From assembly GCA_018821365.1 (NCBI GenBank), contig JAHJML010000174.1:10067-74066 (forward strand): 64,000 nucleotides of DNA, given 5' to 3'. Position numbers and translations under genes: made by a program. The notes under the pieces are model-generated. The model saw only the letters and a program-made list of their open reading frames with translations, did no database searches and was not told where the DNA came from. Shown here in pieces: positions 3,400 to 7,235 of this stretch (the first letter of the stretch is position 1; each line of letters begins with the position of its first letter). Source of the stretch: Actinomycetota bacterium (GTDB lineage: Bacteria > Actinomycetota > Acidimicrobiia > Spongiisociales > UBA11373).

Positions 3400-5448
3400 A
3401 TGAGCGCGTTGTTCGGCACCCTGGGGACCTGGGCGGCGCTCGCCTTTGCGCTCGTCTTGACGGTCAAGGGCTTCCTCGGTCTCTCCAATCCCGCCAGGTC
3501 TTCCGCCCGCAGCCTGGCGATCCCTGCCGTCGGCTTGCTCGTCTCGGCGGGGGTCGCCATGGCGGCTCTCGAGATCGGGCTGCTCACCGACGACTTCAGC
3601 GTCCACTACATCGCCAACAACTCCGCATCGACCACACCCTTCCTGTACAAGGCCGCCAGCGCCTGGGCCGCCCTCGAGGGGAGCCTGGTGCTGTGGGGCC
3701 TGGTGCTGGCTGCCTTCACCTTCTTCATCTGGCGGGCCATGCGCCGCCTGGAGGGACCCGACCCCCTGTGGGCGGGCGCCCTCGGCGTGATGGGCGTCGT
3801 CTCGGCGTTCTTCTTCTTCATGATGGTGTCCGTCTCCAACCCCTTCGAGGTGTGCACCCAGGCGGGATCCTTCGGGTTCGGCTGCGAGGCGGCCAGTGCC
3901 TGGCCCTTCTCCACCATCTCGGCTCCCCTCCACGGACTGGGTCCCAACCCGCTGCTCCAGAACCACCCTCTGATGGCGGTGCATCCACCGCTCCTGTATG
4001 TGGGGTATGTCGGCATGACGGCCCCCTTCTCGTTTGCGATGGCGTCGCTGCTGCTCGGCGAGAGCGGCGATCGCTGGCTCAGGGTCACTCGCAACTGGAC
4101 CCGGATCGCCTGGATCTTCCTGACGGCGGGTGTGGTGCTGGGAGGGCTCTGGTCCTACGAGGTCCTCGGGTGGGGCGGCTACTGGGCCTGGGACCCGGTC
4201 GAGAACGCGTCGTTCATGCCCTGGCTGGTGGCGACCATGTTCGTGCACACTGCCGCCCTCCAGATGCGCCGCGGCGTGCTGCAGGCGTGGAGCTATGCCT
4301 TGGTGATCGCCACCTTCTCCTTGACGATCCTCGGCACCTTCCTGACCAGGTCGGGAGTCATCAACTCGGTGCACTCCTTCACCCAGTCTGCGATCGGCCC
4401 GGTGCTCCTCTGGTTCTTGATGGCGGTGCTGGTGGGTTCCTTCGGCGTCTACGCGGCCCGCATCAATCGGGTTGGATCCGCTCCCCGCCTCGATTCGCTG
4501 GCCAGTCGCGAGGGCATGTTCATGATCAACAACCTGCTCCTCGGAGTGCTTGCGATCGTGGTCCTGGTGGGGACGCTCTATCCGCTGTTCGTCGAATGGC
4601 GCACCGGGGATCAGGTGGGGGTGGGCCGGCCGTTCTTCGATCGGATGGCGCTTCCGCTCTCCTTCGCCCTGCTGTTCGCCATGGCGATCGGTCCGATCAC
4701 CCCCTTCCGCAAGGCCAGTCCCCGGGTGGTGTGGGAACGGTTCCGCACCCCGATGCGGGTGTCTCTGTCTTTGGCCGCCCTGGCAGCCATCCTCTGGCGT
4801 CCCAACGGGTGGATCCTGTTGAGCGTCCTGGCTTCCACGTTCGTGGCGGGGACGGTGGTTCGGCAACTGTGGACGGCTGCTCGCAAGGGATCCGCCGCCC
4901 GGGGCGGCAACATCGCCGGTGAGGCGCTCGCCACCATGAGGAGGGACACCGCCTTCTGGGGTGGTCAGATCGCTCACGTGGGCATCGCCGTGCTGGCGCT
5001 CGGCATCGCCCTTTCCGCCAACGGGGCGGTGCGGGGCACGGTGGACGTCGACGAGGGGGTCCCGGTCGCCTTTGCCGGCTTCGAGTTGACGCTGGTCGAC
5101 AACTTCGAGCGCGACGAGCCGAACCGCATCCTGCGGGGGGCGGTGGTCGAGATCCGGCGGGGCGGCGACCTGGTCACCACCCTGCAGCCGAGACTCAACG
5201 AGTACCGCATCCGCGGCCAGCAGATTGCCTCTCCGGCCGTCGACACCGGGTTGCGGGGCGACCTCTACCTCTCGCTGGCCAGCGACCCGGGGGTGTTCCC
5301 GGTCGAATTGGATCTCTACTGGTTCCCGTTCATCTGGCTGGTGTGGACCGGGGGCTTCATGGCGGCCGCCGGCGGGTTGTGGGCCTGGCTGGTGCGGCCC
5401 CCCCGCCGCAAAGAGGCAGCGATCCCCGAGGGGGCCGCCCGTGTCTGA
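3400..5448 (+). CDS. ccmF: cytochrome c-type biogenesis protein CcmF (System I haem lyase)
   Basis: 682 aa polytopic protein with the WWD-type motif WAWDPVENASFMPWL and conserved His. RBS-like GGAGAGGG lies upstream. Confidence 0.9.
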   Translation: MSALFGTLGTWAALAFALVLTVKGFLGLSNPARSSARSLAIPAVGLLVSAGVAMAALEIGLLTDDFSVHYIANNSASTTPFLYKAASAWAALEGSLVLWGLVLAAFTFFIWRAMRRLEGPDPLWAGALGVMGVVSAFFFFMMVSVSNPFEVCTQAGSFGFGCEAASAWPFSTISAPLHGLGPNPLLQNHPLMAVHPPLLYVGYVGMTAPFSFAMASLLLGESGDRWLRVTRNWTRIAWIFLTAGVVLGGLWSYEVLGWGGYWAWDPVENASFMPWLVATMFVHTAALQMRRGVLQAWSYALVIATFSLTILGTFLTRSGVINSVHSFTQSAIGPVLLWFLMAVLVGSFGVYAARINRVGSAPRLDSLASREGMFMINNLLLGVLAIVVLVGTLYPLFVEWRTGDQVGVGRPFFDRMALPLSFALLFAMAIGPITPFRKASPRVVWERFRTPMRVSLSLAALAAILWRPNGWILLSVLASTFVAGTVVRQLWTAARKGSAARGGNIAGEALATMRRDTAFWGGQIAHVGIAVLALGIALSANGAVRGTVDVDEGVPVAFAGFELTLVDNFERDEPNRILRGAVVEIRRGGDLVTTLQPRLNEYRIRGQQIASPAVDTGLRGDLYLSLASDPGVFPVELDLYWFPFIWLVWTGGFMAAAGGLWAWLVRPPRRKEAAIPEGAARV

Positions 5449-5842
5449 GCGGGCGCGCAAGATCGCTGCTTGGGTGGTCACCCTCGGTCTGGTGGCAACC
5501 GTGGTCTGGGGCTTCCTGGCCGGCGAACCGACGGAGAGCGACCGGGTGTTCGCCCTCGGCGCCCGCATCAAGTGCCCGGTATGCCAGGGGGAGTCGATCC
5601 AGGAGTCGCCGTCGGAGACCGCCATGGCGATGCTCGACGTGGTGGCCGAGAAGGTCGAGGCCGGGCAGACCGACGAGCAGATCCTCGAGTACTTCACCGA
5701 TCGATACGGGGACGGAATCCGCCTCGATCCGCGCTTCGAGTTCCGAACGATGCTGCTGTGGCTGCTGCCGGCCGCCGCGCTGATCGGGGGCGGGTTGATG
5801 ATCTGGAGCCGGCGCCGCCGGCCGGGAGAGGAACCGTCATGA
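5441..5842 (+). CDS. ccmH: cytochrome c-type biogenesis protein CcmH
   Basis: GTG start overlaps the ccmF TGA (GTGTCTGA). N-terminal TM; the LRCxxC-type motif RIKCPVCQGESI; C-terminal TM. Confidence 0.8.
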   Translation: MSERARKIAAWVVTLGLVATVVWGFLAGEPTESDRVFALGARIKCPVCQGESIQESPSETAMAMLDVVAEKVEAGQTDEQILEYFTDRYGDGIRLDPRFEFRTMLLWLLPAAALIGGGLMIWSRRRRPGEEPS

Positions 5843-6657
5843 CCGATAGCGACGACATCCGCCGCCGGGCCCTCGAGGAGCGGGCGCGGCTCGCCCAACA
5901 GGACATCGAAGACCTGCGGCGCCAGGTCGACGAAGGCGAACTGGAGGAGGCCGATGCTGCCGCGCTCGAGGAGCGCTACCGGTCGGACCTCGATGCCGCC
6001 CGCACGAGCCTGGCCGGCATGCCGAAGCCCCGCAAGAGCGCTCCTCCCGCCACGGCGCCCAGCGCCGCCGGCGGAGCCACCGCCGCCGGCAAACCGAACC
6101 GCATCCCTCTGATCGTCGTCATCTCCGCCGCCGCCATGGTGGTGTTGACCATCGCCATCGTGGTGATGGCCACCAGCGGCAACGACGCCGAGACCACGAC
6201 CGACTCCGCGACGCCTCAGGCCGCAACCGGATCGCTGGCGGAGATGGAGGCGGCGGTCGCTTCCCAGCCGGACAACAACACCATGCGGCTGGCCCTGGCG
6301 GGCCTGTACTTCGAATCCGGCGACTACATGAACGCCATGAACCACTACTCGAGCGTGACCGCCAACGACCCGACGCCCCAGGACGCTGCGGTCGCCAACG
6401 CCAGGATCGGTTGGATGGCCTGGGCGGCGCTCGATGACCCGGAGACCGCGCTGTCGTTCCTTGATGCGGCGATCGCGCTCGACCCCACCTACGGCGAGGC
6501 GATCCTGTGGAAGGCCGTCGTGCTCCTCTACGGGATGGACGATGGAGCTGCGGCCGCCCCTCTCTTGGAGCAGGTGCTGGCCTTCCCGGACCTGCCCGAG
6601 GAGCTCAGGCCGGACATCCAGTCCATGCTCGACGAGGCCCGAGGAGGCGGCCAATGA
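5839..6657 (+). CDS. CcmI/CycH-like TPR protein (putative apocytochrome chaperone)
   Basis: ATG overlaps the ccmH stop (ATGA). Acidic coiled-coil N-terminus, one TM (IPLIVVISAAAMVVLTIAIVVMA), then TPR-like helical repeats (LALAGLYFESGDYMNAMNHY...). Placed between ccmH and ccmG. Confidence 0.45.
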   Translation: MTDSDDIRRRALEERARLAQQDIEDLRRQVDEGELEEADAAALEERYRSDLDAARTSLAGMPKPRKSAPPATAPSAAGGATAAGKPNRIPLIVVISAAAMVVLTIAIVVMATSGNDAETTTDSATPQAATGSLAEMEAAVASQPDNNTMRLALAGLYFESGDYMNAMNHYSSVTANDPTPQDAAVANARIGWMAWAALDDPETALSFLDAAIALDPTYGEAILWKAVVLLYGMDDGAAAAPLLEQVLAFPDLPEELRPDIQSMLDEARGGGQ

Positions 6658-7235
6658 CCGATGCTCAGCTCAAGGGCCGCCGGCCGATCTTCTGGATCTC
6701 GGTCGGCGCCGGCCTGGTCGCGTTGATCCTTCTGGCGGTTGCCCTCGCCGATGGGTTCGGGCGGGATCCCCGGGAGCCCGAGAACATCGCCAACCAGGGC
6801 GCCAAGATCGACATGACCAGGGTGCTGCCGTTGCTCGATGGGACGGGCGATGTGGCCTTCTCCGAACTGGAGGGGAAGATCATCGTGATCAACTTCTGGG
6901 CCTCCTACTGCATCCCGTGCCGGGCCGAGCATGAGGTGCTGACCACCGCATCGGAGCAGTATCGGGATCAGAACGTCCAGTTCCTCGGCATCGTCTTCCA
7001 CGACGACCCGGACGCCGCCCGTGACTTCCTCGACACCCTCGGCTGGGGCGACGGGTATCTCTACGCGGAGGATCCCGGGGCGCGGGCCACCGTGGACTTC
7101 GGGGTGTGGGGGGTACCGGAGACCTACTTCGTCGATGCCACCGGCACCATCGTCGACAAGCATTACGGAGCGATCACCCGCGACGACCTCATCCCCGTGC
7201 TCGAATCCATCCTGGCAGGCGACTCGGCCGGCTGA
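6654..7235 (+). CDS. ccmG: thiol:disulfide oxidoreductase CcmG/DsbE (TlpA/ResA family thioredoxin)
   Basis: ATG overlaps the ccmI stop (ATGA). N-terminal TM anchor; thioredoxin fold with active site WASYCIPC. Confidence 0.75.
   Translation: MTDAQLKGRRPIFWISVGAGLVALILLAVALADGFGRDPREPENIANQGAKIDMTRVLPLLDGTGDVAFSELEGKIIVINFWASYCIPCRAEHEVLTTASEQYRDQNVQFLGIVFHDDPDAARDFLDTLGWGDGYLYAEDPGARATVDFGVWGVPETYFVDATGTIVDKHYGAITRDDLIPVLESILAGDSAG

Follow-up and report, generated by a model that had tools for sequence, protein, structure and literature searches.

A split cytochrome c maturation System I in an Acidimicrobiia-type actinobacterium, with its CcmF half beside multihaem cytochrome genes

We analysed a stretch of 64,000 nucleotides (nt) from an Actinomycetota bacterium (contig JAHJML010000174.1, assembly GCA_018821365.1; hereafter the window), in which four consecutive genes, ccmF, ccmH, a gene for a tetratricopeptide repeat (TPR) protein and ccmG, encode components of System I, a pathway for maturing cytochrome c. 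We consider it likely, with a probability of about 0.8, that these genes, abbreviated ccmFHIG, represent one half, CcmF-CcmH-(CcmI-like)-CcmG, of a System I that is complete but divided in an Acidimicrobiia-type actinobacterium, most likely serving all c-type cytochromes of the cell. A first-pass annotation, made from the sequence alone, had proposed the order ccmF-H-I-like-G, and coordinates, family matches and motifs all agree with it, the "I-like" gene being that of the TPR protein. The same annotation regarded the genes as a dedicated maturation unit, unusual for actinobacteria and possibly acquired together with the cytochrome genes downstream, and these further proposals fared less well.

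The identity of CcmF is clear from family matches as well as from individual residues. The protein matches the Pfam families CcmF_C (PF16327, 207 bits against a cut-off of 28.7) and Cytochrom_C_asm (PF01578, 105 bits against a cut-off of 29.9), and it is 36% identical to Escherichia coli CcmF over 677 residues (E=7e-100). Its best solved relative is the CcmF of Thermus thermophilus (6ZMQ), with which it aligns nearly end to end (residues 3-668, E=2.6e-96), and this sequence match settles the predicted fold. A working CcmF is defined by the WWD motif, the periplasmic histidines P-His1 and P-His2, and the ligands of the b-type haem, the transmembrane (TM) histidines TM-His1 and TM-His2 (PMC10746174). 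The WWD motif of the window protein, WGGYWAWDPVEN, occupies residues 258-269, and P-His1 (H195), TM-His1 (H283), P-His2 (H325) and TM-His2 (H526) align with H173, H261, H303 and H491 of E. coli CcmF, the four columns being invariant among 82 aligned sequences. The product name given by NCBI is "heme lyase CcmF/NrfE family subunit".

The three smaller proteins complete a thiol-redox and apocytochrome-handling set. CcmH scores 105.2 bits with Pfam PF03918 (cut-off 25), carries the motif C45-P-V-C48 and hydrophobic segments at its N- and C-terminus, and is 37% identical to the N-terminal domain of E. coli CcmH. CcmG matches the Pfam families Redoxin and AhpC-TSA and is 34% identical to E. coli CcmG (E=5e-15). 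It is anchored by a hydrophobic stretch at its N-terminus and carries the motif WASYC86-I-P-C89 and, at residue 150, GVWGVPET, corresponding to the cis-Pro motif GVxGxPE. The TPR protein consists of a charged N-terminal segment, one TM segment (around residues 90-115) and a C-terminal TPR domain. It has the architecture of CcmI, namely a membrane anchor and a TPR domain that are encoded with, or fused to, ccmH. Its gene keeps this place, with ccmH before and ccmG after it, in about 25 related loci and lies in an unbroken frame with ccmH in seven relatives; in two loci (L084 and L088), a single CcmH gene call of 391-401 residues covers both proteins, as in E. coli CcmH. In hhalign comparisons, the TPR domain matched E. 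coli NrfG with a probability of 69% (E=4.5e-5) and the C-terminus of E. coli CcmH with E=0.19. We conclude that the TPR protein would work like CcmI, and we do not claim its membership in the CcmI sequence family.

The remaining System I genes were found elsewhere in the same genomes. In agreement with the first-pass observation that ccmABCDE are not in the window, tblastn searches with E. coli CcmA-E gave no credible match for ccmB, ccmC, ccmD or ccmE in the 64 kb, and none was found in the window or in the 6.6 kb upstream of it with CcmA-E from locus L019, the closest (58%-related) set from Acidimicrobiia. The sole CcmC match in the window was the related domain of ccmF itself (E=0.001), and the CcmA matches were oligopeptide-type ABC ATPases and UvrA. 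A protein search with L019 CcmC, followed by locus look-up of the candidates, located the missing genes on other contigs of metagenome-assembled genomes (MAGs) carrying ccmFHIG. The MAG GCA_018824165.1 encodes an identical CcmF on its contig 41 and has ccmB (partial)-ccmC/D-ccmE on contig JAHJHD010000296.1, where the product between ccmB and ccmE, P0036, is a 318-residue CcmC with a fused CcmD-like TM tail. P0036 also occurs in the sibling MAG GCA_018819625.1, on a 17.8-kb contig with the string ccmA-ccmB-ccmC/D-ccmE; the gene behind ccmE is a convergent epimerase gene, and ccmF is lacking there. The sibling MAG also has the syntenic locus, in which a DUF2179 gene adjoins ccmF-H-TPR-G and the nonahaem gene, with a CcmF of the same 90%-identity cluster. 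At the ccmABC/DE locus, CcmC carries WGVWWTWD and CcmE carries HDEQY (HxxxY), the junctions are ATGA overlaps, and the GC content at third codon positions (GC3) is 0.90-0.92, resembling that of the window. Both ccmABC/DE and ccmFHIG are present in two independently binned MAGs; therefore, on MAG-level evidence, System I is complete and divided into two loci. Because the detached locus has no ccmF, ccmFHIG is the only partner seen for it, and we infer that the ccmF of the window is the only one in the genome. Among the window proteins scanned, ccmF is the only Cytochrom_C_asm match, and nothing resembling ResB or ResC turned up among the window proteins, about half of which were judged by eye and the rest scanned. 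In this MAG lineage, the 318-residue fused CcmC-CcmD is encoded at L091 (2194-3150) and L092 (424-1380), and about ten further CcmC homologues in the protein search have 312-320 residues.

Divided arrangements are not confined to these genomes. At L019, ccmABCDE adjoins ccmF in inverted orientation. The loci L089 and L090 contain ccmABCDE but no ccmF, and in L008 and L058 no ccmABCDE lies within 10 kb of ccmFH(I)G.

The relatives of these proteins place the system in its host lineage. UvrB of the window is 80-90% identical to MAG proteins labelled Acidimicrobiia, Actinobacteria or Actinomycetota, and the nearest relatives of CcmF, CcmC and UvrB are all from Acidimicrobiia or Actinomycetota MAGs. 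A scan for CcmF, in which every species was represented by a single genome, yielded at least 597 relatives, and we examined the best 80. At least 50 of these 80 loci, which were chosen for the presence of CcmF and so do not give the share of Acidimicrobiia without it, belong to Actinomycetota, mostly to Acidimicrobiia, with carriers including Microthrixaceae, Iamia/Iamiaceae, Acidimicrobiaceae and Ca. Poriferisodalis. In a neighbour-joining tree of CcmF, two actinobacterial groups appeared with the gene orders F-G-H(-TPR) and F-H-TPR-G, and E. coli CcmF and NrfE were far from both. The F-H-TPR-G group comprises about 27 loci with 45-58% CcmF identity; where upstream sequence exists, ccmA-B-C-(D)-E nearly always lies directly before ccmF. 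The window falls inside this group, where its CcmF is sister to those of L019 and L001 on an unexceptional branch of an Acidimicrobiia-dominated clade. The first-pass annotation had contrasted System I here with the System II of model actinobacteria, and the latter holds for Corynebacterium glutamicum, which uses ResBC/CcdA (PMC9145763). The distribution among the best 80 loci nevertheless essentially makes System I the norm across close relatives, a situation that the first-pass annotation itself had named as speaking against its view. Thus, ccmFHIG is an ordinary System I half in a lineage where System I is widespread. In the literature that we searched, no description of System I from Acidimicrobiia or Actinobacteria came up.

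This distribution bears on the suggestion that the genes were co-acquired with the cytochrome genes. On this reading, an actinobacterium otherwise relying on System II would recently have received an island with System I lyase genes and multihaem cytochrome genes, the donor being a proteobacterium or another Gram-negative organism. The use of System II by model actinobacteria (PMC9145763) would fit such an event, as would the sporadic ccm operons in cultured Actinomycetes, which suggest that transfer occurs within the phylum. Full ccmA...F-H-(TPR)-G operons are present in four Actinomycetes (L016, L021, L022 and L024), three of them cultured, Haloechinothrix sp. LS1_15, Tersicoccus phoenicis and Amycolatopsis ultiminotia, and one a MAG, Pseudonocardia sp. 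73-21; the CcmFs of all four group together, next to that of a Microthrixaceae MAG, which suggests sporadic transfer of System I within the phylum. The window itself, however, looks native. The ccm genes have a GC3 of 0.88-0.90 and a synonymous-codon log-likelihood of -0.76 to -0.94 per codon under a housekeeping model, and in GC content, GC3 and codon likelihood both they and the cytochrome genes stay inside the range (for the likelihood, -0.68 to -0.96) spanned by uvrA/B/C, polA, rpsA, pgk, tpi and the opp genes. No mobile-element genes were found among the flanking genes examined, and the F-H-TPR-G order is a trait of the lineage. Because codon usage is native, mobile genes are lacking there and CcmF is nested in an Acidimicrobiia clade, we rejected recent horizontal transfer; the phylogeny and codon comparison that the first-pass annotation had called for thus argue against co-acquisition, and we regard a recent island as very unlikely.

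The layout of the four genes is given in Table 1. NCBI gene calls on the identical contig JAHJHD010000041.1 (GCA_018824165.1) have the same four coordinates. The stop of ccmF and the start of ccmH overlap by 8 nt in GTGTCTGA, and the two following junctions are ATGA overlaps of 4 nt, exactly as quoted in the first-pass annotation. Purine-rich, Shine-Dalgarno-like motifs (GAGGGGG, GGGAGAGGAA and GAGGAGG) lie within the preceding gene, 5-10 nt 5' of the starts. These features make translational coupling of ccmFHIG plausible, as had been proposed. The coupling would not be peculiar to these genes, because stop/start overlaps are frequent in high-GC operons and the next gene pair (7332-8456 and 8449-9888) likewise overlaps by 8 nt; the GC content of the window is uniformly high (0.63-0.72 throughout, in 2-kb windows). 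A promoter and terminator scan and an Rfam search identified no element near the ccm operon. An antisense open reading frame at 3343-6654 (1103 residues) was dismissed as an artefact, with GC1/2/3 values of 0.84/0.53/0.68 that mirror the coding strand.

Table 1. Genes of the ccm locus and of the two adjoining cytochrome clusters in the window.
Feature	Position	Strand	Product length (aa)	Remarks
ccmF	3400-5448	+	682	Haem lyase (holocytochrome c synthase) subunit
ccmH	5441-5842	+	133	GTG start; thiol-redox partner of CcmF
TPR protein gene, ccmI position	5839-6657	+	272	ATGA overlap with ccmH
ccmG	6654-7235	+	193	DsbE-type membrane-anchored thioredoxin; ATGA overlap with TPR gene
Nonahaem cytochrome c	7332-8456	+		From CXXCH count
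FdnI/HydC-like cytochrome b fused to two c-type domains	8449-9888	+		From Pfam/NCBIfam
ImcH-like protein	10062-11666	+		3 TM, one CX3CH, six CXXCH; from motif count
Subunit-IV-like protein fused to ~7 monohaem c domains	11819-13912	-
Cytochrome b6	13917-14576	-
Rieske protein	14578-15051	-
Decahaem lipoprotein	15242-17362	-		Weak MtrC/MtrF domain match

As noted in the first-pass annotation, multihaem cytochrome genes lie directly 3' of the ccm genes: a trio on the same strand (7332-11666), separated by 96 nt between ccmG and the nonahaem gene, -8 nt between the nonahaem and cytochrome b/c genes, and 173 nt before the ImcH-like gene. The terminator scan gave no terminator-like site between ccmG and the trio, and the ccm genes are possibly co-transcribed with it. 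The trio is likely a set of substrates of the Ccm machinery rather than a part of it. Judging from domain matches, the nonahaem protein and the cytochrome b/c protein look like CbcL split into two polypeptides, and the trio as a whole looks like the inner-membrane quinol oxidase modules known from Geobacter, a likeness drawn from domain matches and a published signature. The ImcH family is recognised by three TM helices at the N-terminus together with six CXXCH and a single atypical CX3CH, and homologues were found in 12 phyla; the same 2018 survey counted no CbcL and only one ImcH homologue in Actinobacteria (PMC6295460). The protein at 10062-11666 shows this combination of features.

The physical linkage between ccm and multihaem genes is recurrent. 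In L019, ccmG is followed by a hexahaem gene, and in L001 by a tetrahaem gene and then by an ImcH-like gene 43% identical to that of the window. In L090 (GCA_041607115.1, 364-7080), the same trio, with identities of 54% (nonahaem), 51% (cytochrome b/c) and 61% (ImcH-like) to the window proteins, immediately precedes ccmA-B-C-D-E, and ccmE is not followed by a ccmF; there, the trio is attached to the half of System I opposite to that in the window. Most Acidimicrobiia relatives have no multihaem gene near the ccm operon. Six loci from Gemmatimonadota and Myxococcota (L037, L046, L049, L053, L055 and L060) have very large multihaem cytochrome genes with 8 to 17 CXXCH motifs each, several of them consecutive. 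These genes lie downstream of ccmFGH at a distance of no more than a few kb, and in L037, L049 and L060 they come immediately behind it. The linkage thus recurs in the immediate sub-lineage (L019, L001 and L090) as well as in these two other phyla. In our view, the lyase is a general one, and its genes have a tendency to adjoin, and are perhaps co-transcribed with, genes for heavy-demand substrates.

The same neighbourhood could be read as that of a dedicated, paralogous lyase, an analogue of NrfEFG or SirEFG serving the adjacent multihaem cytochromes, with the CX3CH of the ImcH-like protein as its target and a general ccmFH elsewhere in the genome. A dedicated unit, as suggested by the first-pass annotation, would account for the position of ccmFHIG, detached from ccmABCDE and directly before cytochrome genes, and for the multihaem genes at L019, L001 and L090. 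The FCGE[A/T]CH (CX3CH) site is invariant in three ImcH-like homologues; because it is part of the general ImcH signature, a family trait of homologues in 12 phyla (PMC6295460), it gives the dedicated lyase little support. The TPR domain is nearer to NrfG than to the C-terminus of E. coli CcmH, which would also suit a dedicated lyase, as would a clade-specific insertion in CcmF. The only two cysteines of the window CcmF, C152 and C162 (nt 3853-3885), lie in this insertion of about 20 residues directly before P-His1. Among the CcmFs aligned, 19 Acidimicrobiia members of the F-H-TPR-G clade have the insertion with both cysteines; L005, L015, L008 and the four Actinomycetes copies lack it, as do all outgroups shown, Thermus and E. 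coli among them. The strict co-occurrence of the two cysteines suggests a C152-C162 disulfide. Nearly all of the 19 relatives have canonical operons without adjoining cytochromes, which argues against a connection between the insertion and a dedicated lyase. The window CcmF also sits on a normal branch among CcmFs of canonical operons, the window has no CXXCK or CX15CH motifs, and the ccmABC/DE genes found separately in these MAGs come without a ccmF. We consequently regard a dedicated lyase as quite unlikely.

The specific possibility of an NrfE-type lyase at a nitrite reductase locus, which the first-pass annotation had named as a potential objection, does not apply here, and we rejected it. 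The window has no NrfA, as no Cytochrom_C552 match reached the cut-off, its cytochromes contain no CXXCK, and the NrfE models scored far below their cut-offs (TIGR03145, 344.7 against 927.3; NF007691, 297 against 394), as did NrfF (75 against 159). Alternatively, an operon break might have left the locus behind as a remnant that is decaying or has lost its function, an idea that would draw on its detachment from ccmABCDE and on NCBIfam scores below threshold. This is extremely unlikely in view of four intact frames in which the catalytic histidines, WWD and CXXC motifs are kept, the recurrence of the locus in three or more MAG assemblies (two NCBI accessions stand for an identical CcmF, and a sibling MAG has a variant of the same cluster with the same neighbouring genes), and the need of at least 34 haem-binding motifs in the window for a lyase.

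Returning to the general lyase of a complete, split System I, several observations weigh against it. CcmF scores 395.6 bits with TIGR00353, below the NCBIfam curated cut-off of 569.05, which makes it a divergent family member; CcmG is likewise divergent, its best NCBIfam match being TIGR00385 (DsbE) with 79.9 bits against a cut-off of 123.15. The TPR protein and 13 orthologues matched only generic TPR families of Pfam and NCBIfam, with no CcmI model at E<=0.01. No DsbD or CcdA, the reductant of CcmG, was found among the window proteins scanned against Pfam/NCBIfam or read by eye. The co-occurrence of both ccm halves rests on the binning of MAGs, in two independent bins, and the genome may contain a second ccmF/H copy or a co-resident System II. 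Finally, the multihaem genes that follow ccmG in the window and in both nearest relatives, L019 and L001, exceed what would be expected of a purely housekeeping system.

If the gene identities, catalytic motifs, split, lineage distribution and native composition established above are combined with the biochemistry of the E. coli and Thermus systems, from which every biochemical step is taken, the following route might be envisaged. CcmABC/D from the second locus would load haem on the chaperone CcmE, and holoCcmE would hand it to the WWD site of CcmF, where H195 and H325 would ligate it; a TM b-type haem on H283 and H526 would keep the iron reduced. Reducing equivalents would pass from CcmG (CIPC) via CcmH (CPVC) to the CXXCH cysteines of the apocytochrome, held by the TPR protein in the role of CcmI, and CcmF/H would make both thioether bonds. 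The overlapping stops and starts with their internal Shine-Dalgarno-like motifs could provide roughly stoichiometric, coupled translation, and the lack of a terminator before the nonahaem gene might allow read-through into genes for high-demand substrates.

The proteins share with E. coli CcmF-CcmG-CcmH the WWD motif, the four histidines, the CXXC of the CcmH N-domain, and the CXXC and GVxGxPET of CcmG. The TPR module is the counterpart of the C-terminal half of E. coli CcmH and is fused with CcmH in several relatives. In contrast to E. coli with its order F-G-H, the window has F-H-TPR-G, its TPR module is encoded as a protein in its own right, the genes are detached from ccmABCDE, CcmF has the Cys-pair insertion before P-His1, and the host is presumably a monoderm, judging from its actinobacterial affiliation. 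Thermus CcmF (6ZMQ) also lacks the insertion, with an alignment gap at window residues ~150-172. E. coli NrfEFG resembles the window locus in that a CcmF-like, a CcmH-like and a TPR protein are encoded beside their own cytochrome genes, and it is a dedicated lyase for the CXXCK haem of NrfA (PMC12285233); the window locus includes ccmG in addition, and in the tree its CcmF is no nearer to NrfE than to E. coli CcmF. Shewanella oneidensis likewise has System I in two units with cytochrome genes embedded or adjacent, in the order ccmABCDE, scyA, SO0265, ccmFGH (PMC3769277). There, as in L019, the halves are divergent neighbours, whereas those of the window lineage lie on different contigs, ccmABCDE being absent both from the 6.6 kb examined upstream of the window and from the 57 kb that follow ccmG. 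In E. coli, napC directly adjoins ccmA, a precedent for ccm/cytochrome adjacency. Closest of all are the Acidimicrobiia ccmABCDE-F-H-TPR-G operons (L002-L029), with the same gene order, 45-58% CcmF identity and the Cys-pair insertion; unlike the window, most of them have nine genes in one string and no adjoining multihaem genes. These operons are annotated by NCBI, and as far as we searched there is no description of them in the literature.

Beyond the trio, a convergent operon of four genes on the opposite strand (11819-17362) encodes what appears to be a Rieske/cytochrome b complex connected with multihaem cytochromes. Farther along, a housekeeping string, polA-rpsA-coaE-uvrB-uvrA-uvrC-rapZ, appears on the minus strand at 40043-55697, adjoined by what appear to be pgk-tpi at 37117-39091, both read by eye from translations. 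Two tRNA genes, at 27155-27241 (-) and 56004-56086 (+), are the only Rfam matches in the window. A WD40 repeat protein of 677 residues (60296-62329, +) is possibly foreign, its codon usage being clearly unusual for the window, with a GC3 of 0.78 and a synonymous-codon log-likelihood of -1.16 against -0.68 to -0.96 for the other genes.

A more far-reaching proposal would treat the F-H-TPR-G order, the CcmF Cys pair and, in this sub-lineage, the fused CcmC-CcmD as an Acidimicrobiia variant of System I that is coupled, in the sub-lineage of the window, both genomically and functionally to CbcL-like/ImcH-like quinol:cytochrome modules. If this were true, the lyase half would be co-expressed with, and tuned for, the high-flux maturation of an extracellular-electron-transfer conduit in a presumed monoderm. 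We consider it unlikely.

In summary, the split layout and the proximity to cytochrome genes are real, both have precedents, and the locus is already correctly labelled by NCBI. The CcmF Cys pair at the haem site, the separate or fused TPR protein without a CcmI-model match, and the repeated rearrangements that keep either ccm half beside multihaem cytochrome genes are modest leads for cytochrome c biogenesis; of greater interest than the ccm genes are the CbcL-like and ImcH-like genes next to them. The equation of actinobacteria with System II reflects model organisms only; in Acidimicrobiia, System I is to be expected and should not be treated as foreign, and a conventional, complete System I can mature the many multihaem cytochromes of this organism.

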